A stretch of DNA of 41,085 nucleotides from an uncultured bacterium (lineage in GTDB: Bacteria > Fidelibacterota > Marinisomatia > Marinisomatales > Marinisomataceae). The translations under genes and the position numbers were made by a program. Shown here piece after piece: positions 5,058-15,635 of the stretch; the stretch's first letter is position 1, and every line of letters starts with the position of its first letter. The notes beneath the pieces were generated by a model. The model was given only the letters and a program-made list of their open reading frames with translations, had not been told where the DNA came from and ran no database searches. The DNA lies in the NCBI GenBank assembly GCA_964606555.1, contig CAZSGU010000001.1:23139-64223 (forward strand), given 5' to 3'.

Positions 5058-5085
5058 TGTTTAGTGCACCTAAATTGTAAGAGAG

Positions 5086-5158
<73 letters not shown>

Positions 5159-5229: not shown

Positions 5230-5829
5230 ATGAAAGAAATTGTTATTGCATCATCTAATCAACACAAAATTTCAGAAATTACTCGAAAGATTCATTCAAA
5301 TTTTGATACAATCTATTCTTTATCAGATTTTCCTAAAATTGGAGAGATAAAAGAAGATGGAAACTCAGTTCGTGAAAATTCGTTTATAAAATCAAGGGTT
5401 ACATTTGATTATACCAATATTCCTTCCCTTGCTGACGATACAGCTTTGGAAGTTGATTATTTAAATGGAGACCCTGGACTTTATACTGCACGATATGCAG
5501 GAGAAAGTGCAACATATGATGATAATATAAATAAACTTTTAAAAGCTATGGATGGAGTTATAACAAAAATGAGAACAGCACGATTCAGAACTGTAGTATC
5601 CTATGTAGATGGTGGCAAAAATGATTTTTTTGTAGAAGGATGTGTAGAAGGATATATTCTGAATGAAAAACAAGGTGAATCTGGTTTTGGATATGATCCT
5701 ATTTTTTTTGTTCCAGAACTAAATATGTCTTTGGCAGAAATGTCTTCTAACATCAAGAATAAGATCAGCCATCGTGGAATTGCAATTGATAAATTCAATA
5801 ATAAGATTAATCAGATATTCAATGTATAG
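5230..5829 (+). CDS. rdgB: Non-canonical purine NTP pyrophosphatase (RdgB/HAM1)
   Basis: ASSNQHK, ADDTALEV..LNGDPGLYTARYAG, GFGYDPIF and ISHRG motifs. Confidence 0.95.
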   Translation: MKEIVIASSNQHKISEITRKIHSNFDTIYSLSDFPKIGEIKEDGNSVRENSFIKSRVTFDYTNIPSLADDTALEVDYLNGDPGLYTARYAGESATYDDNINKLLKAMDGVITKMRTARFRTVVSYVDGGKNDFFVEGCVEGYILNEKQGESGFGYDPIFFVPELNMSLAEMSSNIKNKISHRGIAIDKFNNKINQIFNV

Positions 5830-8800
5830 ACTATTTTTACTATGTTGTGTAATATTTTTTCCAAGCTTATTATTTGGTGCTGATAATCTTATTACTAATC
5901 CTTTTTATAAAACTAAAAAAATTAATTTTTGTTTAAATGATATCTCGAATTATCCGATTGGAATTTTTAATGTCAAGAATTCTTTCACAAAATATCAAGT
6001 TGATTTTAATATAAACTCTAATATTATTTCAATTAGTGAATCTTTTTTAGACAATAAAAATCTATTACCATATACGTCTTCCATAGATGATTATTTTGAT
6101 AGCCTTTATGTGGTGAATCAAAAATATAATCTTAGTAAACCATTTAATTTTTCTCCTTCAGATACAACTCAAGCTAAAGCTGGAAAAGACAAATATGTAG
6201 AAATAGCTGATTTTGATATTGGGAGACTCGGTAGAGCATCATTAAAAGTACAAGGGAATATTAATTTACAAGGGAAATTAGTAAACCAAGATCAAGAATT
6301 GGTTAGATCATCCTATAAAGAAAGAGAACAAACAAATTTCCGTTTTGATCAAAAGCAACAACTTAATGTGCAAGGAAAAATTGGTGATCAAGTAACAATA
6401 TCGCTAGATCAAAATTCTGAAAGAGATTTTGATTGGGAAAATACAGTTCGTATTGATTATCAAGGACAAGAAGATGATATTCTTCAAAAGTTGGAAGCCG
6501 GTAATATTTCTCTATCATTGCCCGCTACTGAATTCGTTACTTTTTCAGGTCAAAACCAAGGATTATTTGGAGTCAAAGCTTTTACAAAGCTTGGTCCAAT
6601 GAGCATTACTAGTATTGCTTCACTAGAACGTACAAAAAAAGAATCCCAAAAATATAAAGGAACATCTGAACTGCAAACAAAACGAATTCAAGATTATGAT
6701 TATAGAAAAAATTTATATTTCTTTATTCATGATTGGTTTCGTAATGGTGCAACAGATATAATACCCGATAATGGTTTCCAATTAGATGTTCCATCTTATT
6801 ATCCGCTTAGTAATGGATTACATCCTATTGGTAATCTAGTGGTAAGAAATTTCGAACTATATAAAATCGATGCATCTAATAATCCTGCAGCAGATCCAGG
6901 TATAGCATATATTGATCCTAATGATACTGATTATTATAGCGATAGTAGTAAAGAAGGTGCCTTTATTCGACTGGAAAGAGGGACTGATTATCGTATTAAT
7001 GAAGATTTAGGATTCATAAGAATGCAGAGTAGTTTACAGAACGAAATTATTGGTGCACGATTTGATTTAACAGATCGATCGACTGGTAATGTAGTTTTAA
7101 GTGTAGGTTCTGATGTTGGAGAAAATGGAAATGATGGTTTAATACTAAAAATGATTAAACCACAATCATCCCATCCAAATCATCCAACATGGGATCTAAT
7201 GTTTAAAAATGTTTATTCATTAGGAGGGATTAATATTGATCAAACCAATCTTAGTGTTAGAATTGTTGATAATTTTTCCACTCCAGTTAGTGATAGATCA
7301 AATAATGGAGAAACATTTATAAATTTATTTGGTTTAGATAGTTTAAGTCAAAATGGTAGTTCTTCCCCTGATGAAATTATCGATTTAAGTAATCCTAATA
7401 TTGTCAATCTTGTATCTGGCGAGATTCATTTTCCAGCTCTTTTACCATTTGTTTCAGAAGAAACGATTGTTGGAGGGAATGCTAATGATAACCTTAATTC
7501 TCTGTTGCAAGAAGGGAAAATGTATACAACAACTAATCGTACAGAATATACTGGAGATTCACGATTTACAATCGAAGCTAATTATACCAGTCCAAAATCT
7601 TCTATTAATTTAGGATTTACTTTGGTTGAAGGAAGTGAAGAAATTTATTTCAATAATGAAAAATTAGAAAGAGGATCTGACTATCAGATTGATTATTTCT
7701 CAGGAACAATTGTATTAAATAATAATATTGACCCTAATGGTAATATAGAAATTGTTTATGATAAACATGATTTGGTAACCTTTGATAGAAAAATAATGGT
7801 TGGATCTAGGGCACAAGTTGATTTTGACGAAAATTCATTTTTAGGTATGACAGCCCTTTACTATAACCAAGATATTGTTAATAAAAAAGTAGAAGTAGGA
7901 TATGAACCAATTCAAAATTTTATATGGGATATTAATGGACGTTATGAAAGAGATTTAGAAAATTTATCTGCATCATTAAATAAATTAAATATGTTTGATG
8001 CTGAAAAATTGTCAAGATTTAAACTAGAAGGAGAAATAGCACAAGTATTACCTAATCCAAATTCAATTTCAAATTCTTCAACCGGTGATGGAGATGGTGT
8101 AGCATATATTGATGATTTTGAAGGGTCAAAACGTATTACAAATCCATCAATTTTAAGAAGATTTTGGCATATATCTTCTGCTCCAATCAATATTGATACT
8201 AATCAGTCATTTAATCAACGAGATCGATTAAGAATGCATTGGTATAATCCATTCTCACAGGTTCTTACAAATAATATTTGGCCGAACGTATCTACTTCAC
8301 AAAGAGCACAAAATCTAACAACTGATATATTAGTACTCAATTTTGAACCACAAGAATATCAAACAATTACTAATCCAGATTCATTATGGGCAGGAATTAC
8401 TGCACCAATGTTTATTGGTGAATATGACCAGACTAGAACAAAATTTTTTGAAATTTGGTTACGTGGTGATTCAGGGAAATTAACAATTGATTTAGGAAAA
8501 ATTAGTGAAGATTATGACGGTAATGGTATTTTGAATAACGAAGATATTCCAGATGCAGGTTTGGCACTTGGAAATGGATTTTTGGAAGACAATGAAGACA
8601 CAGGGCTAGATGGATGTTTTGATGCATTTGAAGATGGATGGGGAAGTTGTTTAGATAGTAGTGGATCTAATTATCAAGATTATTTATCCGCAGGAGAATC
8701 GGTTCTTATTAATGCTTCTTCAGATATCGATCCAAATGATCCTAATGCTGATAATTGGAATTATGTTGAGGGAAGTTCAGAATATGAATTTGTTAATGGT

Positions 8801-11800
8801 ACAGAAGGAAATGGTACTGGAGATAGAATTCAACCAGGTGGTAAATATCCTGATAGTGAAGACTTAGATCAGTCAGGATTTCTAGATAGAACAAATGATT
8901 ATTTTACTAAAACAATTTCATTGAATGATACCACCTATGTTGCTGGTTCAACAGTTATCGATGATGTTCCAACAGGTTGGAAGCTTGTTAGAATCCCAAT
9001 AAGTCATTTTTCAAAAATACAAGATATCACTTTAAGTGAAATAAGATATATACGACTCGTCGTATCCGGTGTTAATCAATCATCCACTTTGGAAATAGCA
9101 AAAATGGAACTGGTTGGGAATGCTTGGGAAGAACTGGGTACTTCATTGGTATCAGAAAATGAATATACTATTCAAGATAGTACTTTTCTAGTGACGGTTG
9201 TTAATGATGAAGATAACCCTGATTATATCCCTCCAAAGGGAGTTTATGGAGAGTATGATGAGATTAATCAGATTAGGTCAAAAGAACAATCTCTTGTTTT
9301 AAGGTTTGATAATATGAATCCAAATATTAAAGGGGGTGCAAAAAAAATACTTTCTTCTATGGATGCCAAGAAAGGACAAAGTTTTTTGATTTATGACAAA
9401 ATGAAGATGTATGTTTATGGTAATAGTTCTGATATTGGAGAAAATGAATCTGATGTTGATTTATTTATAGAATTTGGTAATGGAGAAGAATATTACAGAT
9501 TAAGTCAACCAATCTATGATGGATGGGATGAAGATGAAAATCGAAATTCAATTGATTTAAATTTGGACTGGCTTACTGAATTAAAAAATGTTGATTCTAC
9601 TTCTATTGAAAAATTAAATGATAATGATACATTTGTTGATTCTACCGATTATAAAGGATATTCATTTATTAATGATAATGATCAAGAATATAAAAAAGTA
9701 GAAATTATAGGAAATCCTTCTTTATCTAGGCTGCAATATTTTGTTGTAGGCGTTGAAAATAATTCGAACCATCCTATTAGCGGTGAATTATGGCTAGATG
9801 AATTAAGGCTGAGTGGAGTTAAGAAGGAAAAAGGAACAGCTGTAAGATTAAAATCAGAGTTTAACTTATCTGATCTTAATCAAAGTTCATTTTCTTATGT
9901 AAGAAAAGATGCCGACTTCCATATATTGCAAGAAAGGCTTGGAACAAATATTACTACTGAAAGCTTTGTTTTCACAAATCAAATGCAATTAGGAAAACTT
10001 TTTCCTCAAGATATGGGCATTACATTTCCATTAAATATGACATATAATATGCAAAATAATACTCCTAAATTTTTACCAGGGACAGATATAAGAACTAGTG
10101 ATAGTGCCCCAGATTCGGTTATTACTCAATCTTCCACAATTAGTTTAAATGGTAAAATTTCAAAGAGAATTAAATCAGAAAATCCTTTTATTAGGTATAC
10201 AATAGACAATTTAAGTACCTCTTTTAATATTTCTACACAGAATCGATCTGATGAGATTATGAAAAGTGTTGATACTGATAGATTTACATCTAGTGTAGAT
10301 TACAATTTAAAATTTCCAAGCGATAATTACATTCAAGCATTTAAATGGTTGAAAAAAGTTCCAATTGTTGGAGAAAATATGAGTGAAACAAAGTTTTTTT
10401 ATACTCCTAGTTCTTTTAGTACAGGTATAAAATTAAATCAGAACTTAGTAGAAAAACAATCACGAGCTACAGATGAAATAGTCGATGATTTTAATCTAGG
10501 ATTGAACAGAACTTTTGCTTTGAGTTATAAAGTTTTTGATAATTTCCAATTTAATTATAATAGAAATGTACAAACTGATATGGCAGAATATCGAGCCAAA
10601 ATTTTTGAAGCATTAAAAGAATTAAAAATAGGTGATACTACAAGAAATACTGAATCATTTGCTTCAAATTTTTCTCCAAAATGGTTTTCTTGGTTTCAAC
10701 CAAATTTTGTATACAATACAAATTATTCATGGAATAAACCAAGATCTAGCGTTATAGATGGAGCAAATATTGTTTCTGTAAGAAATAATGGGGTTAATTT
10801 TAGTCTTTCTGCTACTGAAATTCTTGAATTATTTTATACTCCTGCTTCAAAAAGAAATGTTCCCGCTCCAAGAACAAGATCGCGAGAAGATCTTGGTGCC
10901 GTTTCATTAGAAAACGATGAAAACGAATCCGAAATAATTGAAGATTCGACTAATAACAAAAAACCTAAAAACAAAAAGGAAAGAAAAATCAACAATAGTC
11001 TTGCAATGGAACGAATATATGGATGGTCAAAAAAAATAGAACCCTTGTCTATTAGCATAAATAACACTACTAATTTGACTTCTAATGCTATTCAAGGCAA
11101 GGTGCCATTAAAATACAGATTTGGTTTGTCTGACACACATGGCCTAGATCATGCATCAGAAGTTGGTTTAAATACTGGTGTTGATGATATCAAAAAATCA
11201 TTATCTATCAGAAGTGGAATCAAATTTGATTCAAATACTTCAATGAATATATCTTTTTCTGAAAGTATATCATCTAATTTAAATGGTTATGGTATTGATA
11301 TTCGTTCAATTAATAGAGACTATTTTGCTTATGGAGAACATCTTTCTGATGGTTTACCATTTTCAAACTGGTCTTTCAGAATTGGAGGTCTTGAAAAGAT
11401 AAAATTTATTAGTCCTTATGTGAATTCATTATCAATTGAACATGCATTCAATGGGAAACAAAATGTTTCATGGAAATTTAATGAAACTGGAATTGGTGCT
11501 ATTGATTTATTGCAAATATCATCTTTTGTTAGCGATAATGATGATTATACTCAATTTTCTAGGGTATCAAGAAATTTTACTCCTTTAATCGGAATTACAA
11601 CTTCTTTTAAAAATGGGATATCTACTAATATTAGAACAAATATAACCCATACACTTGATGAAGTTCCTAACGGATTAACTTATATATCAGAAAACAGTGT
11701 ACTTGCAAGCCTAACATATAATTTTACAAAAGGTATTCGCGTACCTCTCCCATTTACTGAACGTAATATTTATTTAAAAAACAATATTAATCTTACTTTA

Positions 11801-12028
11801 AATATAGATGTTAGTGAAAAGAAAGAAGAAGGCTCAAAAGATAAAATTAATTTTGCCGAGCAAAATTTTGTTGATTCATGGAAAACAATTTTAAGAGTAA
11901 CTTATGCTTTAACAGATAATGTTTCGGGTAGTCTTTTTTATGAATATAGAGTAAATGATACTCGATTAACAGGTAGAAGAACTGATAGGGATTTTGGAAT
12001 AAATATCAATGTTGCAATTAGAGGTTAG
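5822..12028 (+). CDS. sprA: SprA/Sov-like giant outer-membrane beta-barrel (type IX secretion translocon homolog)
   Basis: About 2068 aa from ATG 5822 (signal peptide MYRLFLLCCVIFFPSLLFG). SprA-type motifs YQGQEDDILQKLEAGNISL..GLFGVK, WDLMFKNVYSLG, YIDDFEGS, NGTEGN, PDSEDLD and WLDELRL, plus a beta-strand-rich C-terminal half. Confidence 0.88.
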   Translation: MYRLFLLCCVIFFPSLLFGADNLITNPFYKTKKINFCLNDISNYPIGIFNVKNSFTKYQVDFNINSNIISISESFLDNKNLLPYTSSIDDYFDSLYVVNQKYNLSKPFNFSPSDTTQAKAGKDKYVEIADFDIGRLGRASLKVQGNINLQGKLVNQDQELVRSSYKEREQTNFRFDQKQQLNVQGKIGDQVTISLDQNSERDFDWENTVRIDYQGQEDDILQKLEAGNISLSLPATEFVTFSGQNQGLFGVKAFTKLGPMSITSIASLERTKKESQKYKGTSELQTKRIQDYDYRKNLYFFIHDWFRNGATDIIPDNGFQLDVPSYYPLSNGLHPIGNLVVRNFELYKIDASNNPAADPGIAYIDPNDTDYYSDSSKEGAFIRLERGTDYRINEDLGFIRMQSSLQNEIIGARFDLTDRSTGNVVLSVGSDVGENGNDGLILKMIKPQSSHPNHPTWDLMFKNVYSLGGINIDQTNLSVRIVDNFSTPVSDRSNNGETFINLFGLDSLSQNGSSSPDEIIDLSNPNIVNLVSGEIHFPALLPFVSEETIVGGNANDNLNSLLQEGKMYTTTNRTEYTGDSRFTIEANYTSPKSSINLGFTLVEGSEEIYFNNEKLERGSDYQIDYFSGTIVLNNNIDPNGNIEIVYDKHDLVTFDRKIMVGSRAQVDFDENSFLGMTALYYNQDIVNKKVEVGYEPIQNFIWDINGRYERDLENLSASLNKLNMFDAEKLSRFKLEGEIAQVLPNPNSISNSSTGDGDGVAYIDDFEGSKRITNPSILRRFWHISSAPINIDTNQSFNQRDRLRMHWYNPFSQVLTNNIWPNVSTSQRAQNLTTDILVLNFEPQEYQTITNPDSLWAGITAPMFIGEYDQTRTKFFEIWLRGDSGKLTIDLGKISEDYDGNGILNNEDIPDAGLALGNGFLEDNEDTGLDGCFDAFEDGWGSCLDSSGSNYQDYLSAGESVLINASSDIDPNDPNADNWNYVEGSSEYEFVNGTEGNGTGDRIQPGGKYPDSEDLDQSGFLDRTNDYFTKTISLNDTTYVAGSTVIDDVPTGWKLVRIPISHFSKIQDITLSEIRYIRLVVSGVNQSSTLEIAKMELVGNAWEELGTSLVSENEYTIQDSTFLVTVVNDEDNPDYIPPKGVYGEYDEINQIRSKEQSLVLRFDNMNPNIKGGAKKILSSMDAKKGQSFLIYDKMKMYVYGNSSDIGENESDVDLFIEFGNGEEYYRLSQPIYDGWDEDENRNSIDLNLDWLTELKNVDSTSIEKLNDNDTFVDSTDYKGYSFINDNDQEYKKVEIIGNPSLSRLQYFVVGVENNSNHPISGELWLDELRLSGVKKEKGTAVRLKSEFNLSDLNQSSFSYVRKDADFHILQERLGTNITTESFVFTNQMQLGKLFPQDMGITFPLNMTYNMQNNTPKFLPGTDIRTSDSAPDSVITQSSTISLNGKISKRIKSENPFIRYTIDNLSTSFNISTQNRSDEIMKSVDTDRFTSSVDYNLKFPSDNYIQAFKWLKKVPIVGENMSETKFFYTPSSFSTGIKLNQNLVEKQSRATDEIVDDFNLGLNRTFALSYKVFDNFQFNYNRNVQTDMAEYRAKIFEALKELKIGDTTRNTESFASNFSPKWFSWFQPNFVYNTNYSWNKPRSSVIDGANIVSVRNNGVNFSLSATEILELFYTPASKRNVPAPRTRSREDLGAVSLENDENESEIIEDSTNNKKPKNKKERKINNSLAMERIYGWSKKIEPLSISINNTTNLTSNAIQGKVPLKYRFGLSDTHGLDHASEVGLNTGVDDIKKSLSIRSGIKFDSNTSMNISFSESISSNLNGYGIDIRSINRDYFAYGEHLSDGLPFSNWSFRIGGLEKIKFISPYVNSLSIEHAFNGKQNVSWKFNETGIGAIDLLQISSFVSDNDDYTQFSRVSRNFTPLIGITTSFKNGISTNIRTNITHTLDEVPNGLTYISENSVLASLTYNFTKGIRVPLPFTERNIYLKNNINLTLNIDVSEKKEEGSKDKINFAEQNFVDSWKTILRVTYALTDNVSGSLFYEYRVNDTRLTGRRTDRDFGININVAIRG

Positions 12029-12029
12029 A

Positions 12030-12947
12030 ATGAGATTTATATTAATAGCAATTATCGTATTTGGTTGTAGTAAACAAGAATTAGTAGAAGTGCCACATTT
12101 TAGTGGGGTAAAGGCATTTCAATATTTAGAAAAGCAATGTGAATTTGGACCAAGAAATCCTGGTTCAACCGGCCATAAGGAATTTGCAAATTATTTAGAA
12201 AATTTTCTTAAAGAACATTCTGATAATATTTTAATTCAAAATTTTGAATATGTTGAGCCGGTGACAGAAAGCTTAAGAAAAGGAAAAAATTTTATTGTTC
12301 AGTTTAATCAGGATGCAAAGTATCGATTATTAATTGGAGCACATTGGGATACTCGAGCTGTTTCTGAACAAGATAAGAATATAGAAAACAAAACACTTCC
12401 AGTGCTTGGAGCAAATGATGGTGCAAGCGGTACAGCAATATTGATGACTCTATATGACCTGTTTACAGCTGAGGAACCTCCAATTGGGATTGATTTAGTA
12501 TTTTTTGATGCCGAAGATGTTGGAAGATCATTTGAAGGCACTACTTTTGCTGTCGGTTCAGAATTTTTTTCTAAAAATCTTCCTATTGAAAAACCTAATT
12601 TTGCTATTATTGTTGATATGGTTGGAGATAAACAATTGAATTTACCTATTGAAAGATTCTCTTATAATATTGCTCCTAAAAAAGTAAAGGAGATTTGGGA
12701 TATGGCAGAAGATCTTTCCTTAAATGCTTTTGAGAAGAGGATTGTTGAAGAAATTTATGATGATCATGTTCCGTTATGGAACAATGCGCAAATTCCTGCT
12801 ATTGATATTATTGATTTTAAATATCCTAATTTGTTTTACAATCATTGGCATACACAACAAGATATTCCTGAAAATTGTTCTCCAAAAAGTTTAGAGCAGG
12901 TTGGTACTTTATTATTAAATTATATTTATGTTTCAGATCACAAATAA
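12030..12947 (+). CDS. M28-family lipoprotein, probable glutaminyl cyclase (bacterial, animal-type fold)
   Basis: Lipobox VFGC after ATG 12030. Motifs GAHWDTR, GANDGASG, FFDAEDVG, DMVGD, DDHVP and HWHTQQD match Bacteroidota glutaminyl cyclases as I recall them. Confidence 0.8.
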   Translation: MRFILIAIIVFGCSKQELVEVPHFSGVKAFQYLEKQCEFGPRNPGSTGHKEFANYLENFLKEHSDNILIQNFEYVEPVTESLRKGKNFIVQFNQDAKYRLLIGAHWDTRAVSEQDKNIENKTLPVLGANDGASGTAILMTLYDLFTAEEPPIGIDLVFFDAEDVGRSFEGTTFAVGSEFFSKNLPIEKPNFAIIVDMVGDKQLNLPIERFSYNIAPKKVKEIWDMAEDLSLNAFEKRIVEEIYDDHVPLWNNAQIPAIDIIDFKYPNLFYNHWHTQQDIPENCSPKSLEQVGTLLLNYIYVSDHK

Positions 12948-13977
12948 ATTTTTGTTTATTACTATTTTTTTAATGAGTTGCTCAGGAGGTGGAGGTTCTT
13001 CTACGGGTCCTGATGATGGATCTGATGGTAGCGATACTGGTGGAGGAGATTCTTATACTTTTCCTAATGCAACTAATTTTGATCAAGAAAATCAAATTGA
13101 AGTGATTTCTTGGAATATTCAAACATTCCCACAACTAAGTACTACTCCAAATTATGTTAAAAGTTTACTTGAAACTTGGAATGCTGATCTTTATTTATTT
13201 CAGGAAATTATTGATAAAAATACATTAATCAATATGGTAAACTTAATGCCAGAGTATTCCTATGTTATTTCTGGCGAGACAAGTAATATGCATTTTGCAT
13301 TAGTATATAAAATTGCAAATTCAGATTGTTCTGCTTGTGGTATAGTAAACTTTAATTATAGCAATGAATTGTGGTCTGATACGGCAAACTATAATGATAA
13401 TGATAATGATCCTGCTAATAATGCCAAATATCAATTTGCAAGCAGACCTCCCATGGAAAATTTTGTTACTTGGACAAATGGCACTAAATCAGTTGATCTC
13501 TATCTTATTGATATTCATTACAAATGCTGTGGTGATAATACTTTAGATCTTTCCAATAAAGGCTCTGAAACAACAAGAAGACATTACGCAAGTACGCTTC
13601 TTAGAGATTATGTCATTAATCAGAGAGCGAGTGATTATGTAATGATTGTAGGAGATTTTAACAATATTGGTGAACAATCTATATCAAATCCTTCAATTGC
13701 TCCATTAACAGATCCTGATATCAATTCTAATTATTTCAAGATGGCAGACGAATATATTTTCGATCAAAGTAATTCTACTTGGTCATGGCAAGGGTGGAGA
13801 AGTTCATTTGCTCCCTCTCATCTTGATCATGTAATAATTAGTCAACCACTCTTTCAGTTTGAATCTGTCTCTAATTCTGGAATAATTGATATGCTTACCG
13901 AAACTGGGATGTCAGCATATGATATTGATGATAAACTTTCAGATCATAAACCATCTTATTTTAGATTCTATCCATAA
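12928..13977 (+). CDS. Endonuclease/exonuclease/phosphatase (EEP) family lipoprotein
   Basis: Lipobox LMSC and a Gly/Ser/Asp linker, then SWNIQ, FQEI, HYKCC, VGDFN, HLDHVII and SDHKP motifs. Confidence 0.88.
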   Translation: MFQITNKFLFITIFLMSCSGGGGSSTGPDDGSDGSDTGGGDSYTFPNATNFDQENQIEVISWNIQTFPQLSTTPNYVKSLLETWNADLYLFQEIIDKNTLINMVNLMPEYSYVISGETSNMHFALVYKIANSDCSACGIVNFNYSNELWSDTANYNDNDNDPANNAKYQFASRPPMENFVTWTNGTKSVDLYLIDIHYKCCGDNTLDLSNKGSETTRRHYASTLLRDYVINQRASDYVMIVGDFNNIGEQSISNPSIAPLTDPDINSNYFKMADEYIFDQSNSTWSWQGWRSSFAPSHLDHVIISQPLFQFESVSNSGIIDMLTETGMSAYDIDDKLSDHKPSYFRFYP

Positions 13978-13978
13978 A

Positions 13979-14731
13979 GTGAATTATTTTTCTTTTTTTG
14001 CACTATTTTTTTTATTAATAAGTGCAATTTTTTCTCAAGATTTTGAAGAAATTGATTCTAATCTTCTCAACCGAAATTTTGAAGATACTATTATTCCTTT
14101 AAATAAATTAAATACAGAATATCCAAAAAATTTAGAAATATTAGTTCGGCTTTCAGCAGCACATCATTTATTATCAGAAAAAGTGTATGACAAAGCAATG
14201 GATATATATCATCTAGATAAATCACTTCATTATATTACAGAAGCTATAAAAATTGATTCAACACATGGGGAAATTCATAAATGGTATGCACTTGCATATG
14301 GAAAAAAACTCGAAAATGCTAATATTAGAACTCAAATTGAAGGTTCTAAAATAATTGCTTTTCATTCCACTGAAGCAATTAAAAAATTACCTGATGATCC
14401 ATATTGCTATAATGTAATGGGACAATGGCATTATCGTTTAGCAGATTTAGGAAAAGTATCACGAAAACTAGCACAAATTATTTTTGAAGAACCCCCAGAA
14501 GGATCATTTGAACTGGCAGAGTCTTATTTTAAGACAAGTATTGTATTAGAACCAGAATATATAGGTACTTATTATTGGCTCGGAAAAACATATCAGAAGT
14601 TAGGTAAATCTGATGATGCCCTAGTGGTATTTAAAAAAGGAATTAAATTATTGCCTCCATATAAAAGAGAGGAAGCAATGTATAAAGAAATGATTAAAAT
14701 TCTTGAAAAGAATGACAGAAAAAAATCTTAA
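13979..14731 (+). CDS. Secreted TPR protein resembling regulator of microtubule dynamics (RMDN/FAM82) TPR domain
   Basis: Probable GTG start at 13979 gives a signal peptide. HKWYA...AIKKLPDDP...MGQWHY...RKLAQIIFEEPPEGSFELA..YF...LGKTY parallels RMDN1. Confidence 0.7.
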   Translation: MNYFSFFALFFLLISAIFSQDFEEIDSNLLNRNFEDTIIPLNKLNTEYPKNLEILVRLSAAHHLLSEKVYDKAMDIYHLDKSLHYITEAIKIDSTHGEIHKWYALAYGKKLENANIRTQIEGSKIIAFHSTEAIKKLPDDPYCYNVMGQWHYRLADLGKVSRKLAQIIFEEPPEGSFELAESYFKTSIVLEPEYIGTYYWLGKTYQKLGKSDDALVVFKKGIKLLPPYKREEAMYKEMIKILEKNDRKKS

Positions 14732-15635
14732 AGATATTATTACAGAAAAAGCACTTCATTTAGGATTCGATAAAATTGGTTTTGCTAACCCTTCGCATAA
14801 AGTGGATTCTAATAATTATTTTGATGAATGGATCAAATCAAATTATCATGGTACAATGAAATGGATGGAATCAAGAAAAGAGGAACGAACAAATATATTT
14901 AATTATTTTCCTGAAGTAAAAACTGTGATTTCATTAGCATTTAATTATTTTACAAAGAGAAGTTCTGAATTTTCAAAAAATTATAATTCAGATATCAAAT
15001 TTAGTAATTATGCATGGGGGGATGATTATCATAAAGTCATTAAAGATAAACTTCACCTTATCAAAGATACAATTTCTGATTATGATTCATCTATCAAAAC
15101 CTTGGTTTGTGTAGATACTGCACCAATTATGGAGAAAAAATGGGCAGAAAAAGCAGGTATTGGATGGCAGGGGAAGAATACAAATCTTCTTACCAAAGAT
15201 TTGGGAAGTTGGATATTTTTGGCAGAAATACTGATTGATCAAGAAATAGAGTATGATATTCCTTTCAGTGAAGATTTGTGTGGTACATGTACGGCATGCA
15301 TCGATGCATGTCCAACAAATGCTTTAACAGAATATAAAATAGATTCCAATAAGTGTATCTCGTACCTTACTATTGAGTATAGAGAAGATTTTAAAAATGA
15401 AAATTTACATGATTGGATTTATGGATGTGATATATGCCAAGAAGTATGTCCATGGAATATTAAATTTGAACAGGTAAAAAAAGACCAACAGTTTGAACCA
15501 AGAGAATCATTGGTTAATTTTTTTCAATCAAACTGGAACAATTTAAGTGAAGAGACTTTTCAATCAAGTTTTTCGAATTCTGCTGTAAAAAGAACTAAAT
15601 ATAAAGGACTAAAAAGAAATATTGAGTCCTTATAA
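14712..15635 (+). CDS. queG: tRNA epoxyqueuosine(34) reductase
   Basis: YAWGDDYH, VDTAPIMEK, GIGWQGKN, CGTCTACIDACPT, CISYLTIE and GCDICQEVCPWN motifs. Confidence 0.96.
   Translation: MTEKNLKDIITEKALHLGFDKIGFANPSHKVDSNNYFDEWIKSNYHGTMKWMESRKEERTNIFNYFPEVKTVISLAFNYFTKRSSEFSKNYNSDIKFSNYAWGDDYHKVIKDKLHLIKDTISDYDSSIKTLVCVDTAPIMEKKWAEKAGIGWQGKNTNLLTKDLGSWIFLAEILIDQEIEYDIPFSEDLCGTCTACIDACPTNALTEYKIDSNKCISYLTIEYREDFKNENLHDWIYGCDICQEVCPWNIKFEQVKKDQQFEPRESLVNFFQSNWNNLSEETFQSSFSNSAVKRTKYKGLKRNIESL

Follow-up and report, generated by a model that had tools for sequence, protein, structure and literature searches.

SprA and its translocon partners in Marinisoma, a streamlined genus in which no Gld motor and no PorU sortase are detected

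The closest described counterpart of the secretion system considered here is the extended translocon of the type IX system for protein secretion (T9SS) in Flavobacterium johnsoniae, which consists of SprA, PorV, SprE, SkpA and PorD (PDB 6H3I, 6H3J, 8GL6, 8GL8; accessible part of PMC10994853). According to the same passages, loading of the cargo C-terminal domain (CTD) on PorV inside SprA is energy-free in F. johnsoniae, where loss of the motor leaves substrates trapped, and, in Bacteroidota, release of the PorV-cargo pair requires the Gld motor and the hub (PMC10994853). Here we describe an sprA gene, and the translocon to which its product would belong, in a 41,085-nucleotide stretch of DNA (the window) from an uncultured bacterium of the family Marinisomataceae (phylum Fidelibacterota; GenBank assembly GCA_964606555.1, contig CAZSGU010000001.1, positions 23,139 to 64,223), the relatives of which are Marinimicrobia, or SAR406. 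The F. johnsoniae subunit list, the peptidyl-prolyl isomerase (PPI) subunit apart, is matched, with a SprE-like and a PorD-like protein among the counterparts, in this genus, Marinisoma, and, judging by homology, we are fairly confident that it possesses a working T9SS translocon devoid of the Gld proteins and of PorU.

In their accessible parts, published sources describe SprA as specific to the Fibrobacterota-Chlorobiota-Bacteroidota (FCB) group and lacking only in Chlorobiota (PMC12611786), allow for T9SSs in further phyla of the FCB group, with Marinimicrobia unnamed there (PMC11285876, PMC5837995), define PorD and PorW (PMC8754138) and infer that the T9SS evolved within the gliding machinery of Bacteroidota (PMC12635249). 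Our literature search, which most subscription papers fall outside, returned no paper on a T9SS in Marinimicrobia or on a motor-less T9SS: the passages of PMC12611786, PMC11285876 and PMC5837995 name neither Marinimicrobia nor a missing motor (Extended Data Table 2 of the first may list Marinimicrobia), and those of PMC11205867, PMC8542988, PMC11652737 and PMC7323717 hold nothing further on either subject. What is added here is the SprE/PorD/Skp set, a genus-specific porU deletion with phylum-wide counts, and a census that finds a single ExbB in a complete chromosome. Partial T9SS gene sets were reportedly noted in Rhodothermus and Salinibacter by McBride and Zhu in 2013. The present system shares with the other FCB sets the occurrence of SprA outside Bacteroidota, and other sampled Marinimicrobia likewise lack a detectable Gld motor; unlike those sets, this genus has additionally lost PorU, as well as the genes for a PorZ-like cargo and two PorV-family proteins located after sprA in larger relatives.

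An intact SprA and its partners

The sprA gene is a single open frame that ends at position 12028 of the window. The open reading frame (ORF) finder placed its start at GTG 5774; we take ATG 5822 as the start because it yields an N-terminal signal peptide, has an 8-base overlap with the end of rdgB and agrees with the starts in relatives. The original prediction, made from the DNA sequence without database searches, that this 6.2-kb gene is sprA-like holds: the protein scores 708.6 bits with TIGR04189 (curated cut-off 200), and SprA is the only match in a PDB search with its sequence (E 2.8e-55). A profile of 52 relatives aligns with the F. johnsoniae SprA (E 1e-235) in three ordered stretches that cover residues 42-2378 of 2403, and the cap-region sequence is conserved between the two. 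AlphaFold2 models of two halves (mean predicted local distance difference test values of 82.8 for residues 1000-2068 and 75.1 for residues 20-1150) contain some 36-37 long strands between them by visual count, and the four SprA chains rank first in Foldseek searches with these half-models (E 4e-41 and 5e-59). On these comparisons, the gene is an intact, full-length member of the SprA family that is colinear with the F. johnsoniae protein and about 335 amino acids shorter.

The C-terminus ININVAIRG, an EDYDGNGILN loop and a Cys pair (932, 943), to which the original prediction drew attention, are all present. The non-aromatic terminus is nothing peculiar, given that an aromatic last residue is found in only 25 of the 108 SprA relatives of at least 1850 amino acids and that the P. 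distasonis protein ends in FSLAQ; nor is the loop, the SED...DG motif of which aligns with the F. johnsoniae SprA. Both features are ordinary for SprA. As to the Cys pair, Cys932 is present in 40 and Cys943 in 39 of 51 relatives, and among the 10 remotest relatives a single one has both; the pair is lineage-specific and probably forms a loop disulfide.

As the prediction supposed, the host is not a member of Bacteroidota and its genome is streamlined. The source assembly comprises 803,765 bases (93% complete), and the better genomes of the genus span 0.8-1.1 Mb. The comparisons include a complete sister chromosome, G041, a single contig of 969,550 bases with a SprA (L021) that is 96% identical to the one in the window; the source assembly lacks, among other gaps, the equivalent of G041 bases 1-74,986 (about 75 kb). 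SprA was found in all 121 genomes of the phylum, with identities of 60-96% within the genus, about 42-56% within the order and 32-37% within the phylum, compared to 23% with P. distasonis. The G+C content of the gene, 30%, is like that of the window, and the 25 sequences from the phylum group together as a single clade in a FastTree phylogeny of 46 sequences, which includes one named Bacteroidota sequence and no clade test and follows the taxonomy. From the identity gradient, the G+C content and the single clade, we conclude that sprA is vertically inherited; given the low identity with P. distasonis, together with the latter two observations, we reject a horizontal origin from Bacteroidota. 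Marinimicrobia-type sprA contigs (L060, L048) also occur in metagenome-assembled genomes (MAGs) titled Winogradskyella and Chloroflexota, which are probably mislabelled or misbinned, and a far higher-scoring sprA fragment in another genome (G067:C105) is possibly a contaminant. A promoter scan gave results at chance level; the RNA runs consist of contigs only and provide no expression read-out, with shares of at most 0.11 in the two true RNA holders.

The prediction presented this SprA as unaccompanied by other T9SS genes. That is correct for the window: among its 38 scanned proteins, the 37 other than SprA include no T9SS protein, and porV, plug, gldKLMN and sprE are absent. It does not extend to the genome, where PorV, SprE-like and PorD-like proteins, Skp and CTD cargo are encoded elsewhere. 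The source genome PorV scores 76 bits with PF19572, two barrels of G041 score 217.6 and 121.7 with the NCBIfam PorV-family model (cut-off 90), and PorV-family genes are present in 21 of 21 genus genomes, in two copies in 17 of these. Of 61 phylum genomes, 59, the source genome among them, encode a PorD (DUF4835) protein that exceeds the Pfam cut-off. A SprE-like tetratricopeptide repeat (TPR) lipoprotein is likewise encoded in the source genome and in 59 of 61 phylum genomes, none over the cut-off; in a PDB search, its profile has the F. johnsoniae SprE as the best natural match (E 2e-30), and a search with the single sequence found no match. Skp is encoded in the source genome beside bamA. 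A barrel resembling BamG near bamD-porV (L140:12142-13437 in G041; G000:C4:18511-19803 in the source genome; 95.6 bits, below the cut-off) suggests a Bacteroidota-like barrel assembly machinery complex, and Bat-type genes encoding von Willebrand factor A, TPR and BatD proteins (L128-L129, L148) are retained in G041 along with a MoxR ATPase.

Cargo is scarce. Three type A CTD proteins with signal peptides exceed the cut-off in the source genome; with a lineage-specific CTD profile, the count is exactly 4 for G041 and 3 for the source genome, five genus genomes have 4-6 CTD matches, and across the genus the number is 3-6 per genome. The CTDs carry the terminal Lys motif. By comparison, the larger relative G058 encodes 30 CTD proteins in the 800 kb, out of 2.3 Mb, that were covered. 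One G041 cargo, a 1084-amino-acid protein with a variant CTD (L107:3112-6366), is encoded between a TonB-dependent transporter (L106:16065-19184) and a PorV-family barrel (L107:6386-7435), and the order of this triad is the same in G058 (L240). Directly before the 1717-amino-acid cargo of G041 lies a gene for a PKD-cohesin lipoprotein (L152:7718-13862), a possible second anchoring route. The triad recalls type B carriers (SprB-SprF) and SusC-SusD in that a cargo gene stands beside its own carrier gene and a TonB-dependent transporter gene; in contrast to both, the carrier here is of the PorV family and the tail is type A-like, and no SusD family match was found among the 238 G041 proteins scanned. 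These 238 were drawn from 256 proteins with a hydrophobic N-terminus among 975 ORFs, the 18 others being window orthologs or evident cytoplasmic enzymes.

The resemblance to F. johnsoniae extends to a colinear SprA, a PorV carrier, a SprE-like TPR lipoprotein, the PorD family, Skp and type A CTD cargo. The differences are that GldKLMN, PorU, SprF/PorP and the type B route are undetected here, that there are 3-6 cargoes, and that sprA is coupled to a cyclase-like gene. Overall, the system appears to resemble a type A T9SS translocon and, in its motor, hub and sortase, to lie outside the Bacteroidota-type T9SS.

Motor, hub and sortase

The genome-wide profile search recommended in the original prediction thus recovered PorV and CTD cargo; for GldK/L/M/N and PorU it came back empty. 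GldM was found in 0 of 41 genomes, and the GldM_4th model produced weak matches in 7 of 121, one of them at the cut-off and none of the YbbR family. Two of the seven were rejected as GldM, being soluble, cytoplasmic-type proteins that presumably resemble 2-oxoacid dehydrogenase acyltransferases. GldL exceeded the cut-off in 0 of 121 genomes, with weak matches in 7 that involve only the C-terminal part of the model and fall in long frames; GldN was found in 0 of 5 genomes and, over the cut-off, in 0 of 121, with a single weak match. The GldK search yielded no candidate in G041 and matched proteins of the formylglycine-generating enzyme (FGE) type in two other genomes and in three controls. None of the 238 exported or anchored G041 proteins is a GldK, GldL, GldM or GldN, and inspection by eye of 47 unannotated envelope proteins found none with an evident GldL-like or GldM-like layout. 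Of the genomes tried as Gld controls, a MAG titled Winogradskyella is without GldN and the P. distasonis record without GldK.

With NCBIfam, none of 63 + 17 envelope proteins is named as Plug, PorG, PorT or PorE, for which no family-wise search across genomes was made; a 205-amino-acid barrel was rejected as PorG/PorT, having no family match and atlas neighbours that are unnamed or TraO-like. G058 and G066 encode SprF/PorP; in G041, G012 and G123 none was found.

The sortase has a clearer history. PorU was found in 0 of 12 genus genomes versus 108 of 109 phylum genomes outside the genus, and Peptidase_C25 in 0 of 21; a PorU profile from 10 relatives gave best E values of 0.14 in G041 and 0.025 in the source genome, that is, nothing. 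Among the matches listed, the gene order in relatives is acn-porU-maf-rodZ (L182-L187). The same site reads acn-maf-rodZ in the source genome (G000:C6:13516-14119) and acn-rodZ, with a 157-base gap, in G041, from which maf is gone too. By these gene orders and counts, no motor is detected anywhere in the phylum, and the PorU sortase is lost within this genus, deleted from its syntenic site.

The near-complete genomes G041, G012 and G106 encode one MotA/TolQ/ExbB protein each, and larger relatives 1-3. In G041, this gene belongs to an exbB-exbD-exbD-tonB cluster (L103:1895-3983); there is no second one and, therefore, no separate Tol motor.

The sprA neighbourhood

The rdgB and queG assignments of the prediction are correct (Table 1). 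The former gene is upstream of sprA in 52 of 59 related loci; queG is beside it in just 9 of 59. A glutaminyl-cyclase-like gene of the M28 family, overlooked in the prediction, adjoins sprA in 45 of the 59 loci, and the remaining 14 stop within or at sprA. In PDB, its product matches the glutamine cyclotransferases 6qro (E 1e-47) and 6qql (E 1e-42), and the closest proteins are glutaminyl cyclases of Bacteroidota. By a crude rule, Gln is predicted at position +1 of the signal-peptidase site in 54 of 165 exported G041 proteins, against a background of 5.5%, an enrichment that may represent the Q-rule outside Bacteroidota. In larger relatives (L044, L062, L079, L195-L200), the cyclase gene is followed by genes for a lipoprotein, a PorZ-like beta-propeller with a CTD and two PorV-family proteins. 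This block of CTD cargo and two PorV-family genes sits between the cyclase and the endonuclease/exonuclease/phosphatase-family genes and is absent from the sprA loci of the genus. The exported TPR protein farther downstream was rejected as a SprE homolog, having no SprE match.

Table 1. Features of the sprA region (positions in the window) and CTD cargoes of the sister chromosome G041
Feature	Location	Strand	Remarks
tRNA-Phe(GAA)	5085-5158	-	shortly upstream of rdgB and pointing away from the sprA operon
rdgB (Ham1-type pyrophosphatase)	5230..5829	+	TIGR00042 over cut-off; 8-base overlap with sprA start
sprA, T9SS outer-membrane translocon	5822..12028	+	2068 amino acids with signal peptide; TIGR04189, PDB, Foldseek
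Asp/Gly-rich loop with Cys932-Cys943 in sprA	8507..8650	+	residues ~896-943; motif partly in F. johnsoniae SprA
Glutaminyl-cyclase-like M28 lipoprotein	12030..12947	+	starts 1 base past the sprA stop; start read from sequence
Endonuclease/exonuclease/phosphatase-family lipoprotein	12928..13977	+	PF03372
TPR (RMD1-3-like) exported protein	13886..14731	+	PF21033 and TPR matches
queG	14703..15635	+	TIGR00276; secretion-unrelated variable neighbour
CTD cargo, metalloprotease-like (G041)			858 amino acids
CTD cargo, choice-of-anchor B protein (G041)			
CTD cargo, choice-of-anchor J/PKD protein (G041)			1717 amino acids
CTD cargo (G041)			1084 amino acids; between TonB-dependent transporter gene and second PorV-family gene

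A possible export route and its implications

By homology with F. johnsoniae, cargo would cross the inner membrane by Sec, as the signal peptides suggest, the CTD would enter the SprA barrel and bind the PorV loops without energy input, and the PorV-cargo pair would be released while SprE and Skp are at their positions. The adjacent cyclase would likely cap the new N-terminal Gln; we treat this as a linked general step and not as a targeting signal because, in its accessible part, PMC5837995 argues that targeting to the T9SS is not governed by cyclization. In a cell that lacks PorU, the CTD would be neither cut nor joined to lipid, and the cargo would either stay bound to its carrier by non-covalent contacts or be shed. 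The 1084-amino-acid cargo that has its own PorV-family gene is likely a surface partner of the adjoining TonB-dependent importer.

For the release step, and for that step alone, we tentatively rank the single ExbB-ExbD-ExbD-TonB set first because it is the only recognizable periplasmic force transducer in the cell; this set may energize release. Somewhat less probable, and ranked second, is release without any motor, by thermal dissociation from SprA aided by SprE, Skp and the folding of cargo outside, in which case Bacteroidota would have acquired the Gld energy chain later. Energy-free loading in F. johnsoniae, the small number of cargoes in each genus genome and the absence of any candidate that stood out among the 47 unannotated envelope proteins are consistent with such passive release, whereas the trapping of F. 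johnsoniae substrates without the motor, the cargo-rich larger relatives that have no Gld either (such as G058) and the retention of SprE, which is needed for energized release, argue against it. An unrecognized motor or hub, unrelated to GldKLMN or too divergent from them, that couples to SprE and PorD is unlikely and ranks third. It would account for the phylum-wide retention of the SprE-like and PorD-like proteins and has some room among the approximately 47 family-less envelope proteins of G041, including a small conserved barrel, the more so as the Gld searches had no positive control. Nevertheless, the layouts seen by eye provide no candidate, and the two weak GldM matches examined, of seven, are both of cytoplasmic type; the conservation of the unannotated proteins was compared against a small part of the distant genomes.

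The prediction offered two readings of sprA, a divergent or minimal T9SS-like pathway and a repurposed giant channel, of which the first fits the findings, with no Gld motor detected. Conversion of SprA into a giant uptake or general channel that no longer secretes could explain why motor and sortase are undetected, why cargoes are few and why there are extra Asp-rich loops, and is nonetheless highly improbable: carrier barrels are kept in every one of the 21 genus genomes, the CTD cargoes still carry the terminal Lys motif, a SprE-like and a PorD-like protein persist, and the SprA cap region is conserved with F. johnsoniae. Still less credible is the view that the system is a relic in decay, or that the T9SS is complete and ordinary, with genes missed in an incomplete assembly. 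The source assembly does miss about 75 kb at one place, and a few relatives have split sprA frames; against this, full-length sprA frames are open across the genus, and the single-contig sister chromosome repeats the same absences, so that this explanation is already largely refuted. The same chromosome speaks against the ordinary Bacteroidota with a canonical T9SS elsewhere in the genome that the prediction had considered.

Several observations weigh against the reading that we prefer, a working translocon without Gld motor and PorU, with release powered by ExbBD-TonB. The Gld searches included no genome with true Gld genes as a positive control, and a very divergent motor could escape them. 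The partner assignments stay below equivalog level: PorV scores 157.8 against a cut-off of 250 (the family cut-off is passed), the PorD-like protein 50.5 bits against an NCBIfam cut-off of 170, and the SprE-like protein 107.8 bits against a SprE/PorW cut-off of 250. The latter is also 330 amino acids shorter than its F. johnsoniae counterpart (540 versus 870), TPR similarity is promiscuous, and one engineered TPR protein outscored SprE in the profile search. The structural comparison proposed in the prediction has SprA as the best match, yet the models are half-proteins with root-mean-square deviations of 12.6 and 24.5, too weak for a closed barrel. Finally, exbBD-tonB is unlinked to any T9SS gene, six TonB-dependent transporters already account for its presence, and both this cluster and the transporter-cargo-PorV triad are missing from the source assembly, where they fall within the missing block of about 75 kb.

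With these points considered, we give an even chance to the fuller proposition that Marinisoma has the smallest working T9SS, with five translocon parts, no rotary Gld motor, hub or sortase, cargo held by PorV and release that is either driven by ExbBD-TonB or motor-free, and that the motor-less translocon is ancestral. If true, such an ancestral state would contradict the origin of the T9SS within the Bacteroidota gliding machinery, and a phylum that keeps the extended translocon without a detectable motor challenges general statements on the T9SS. The complete 970 kb chromosome narrows the question to machinery of about 11 kb, four cargoes, a single ExbBD-TonB set and about 47 unannotated envelope proteins. 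It also reveals on which surface proteins a streamlined lineage that is abundant in the sea spends its resources: a bacterium with a tiny genome that likely exports protein by a route simpler than the textbook T9SS.

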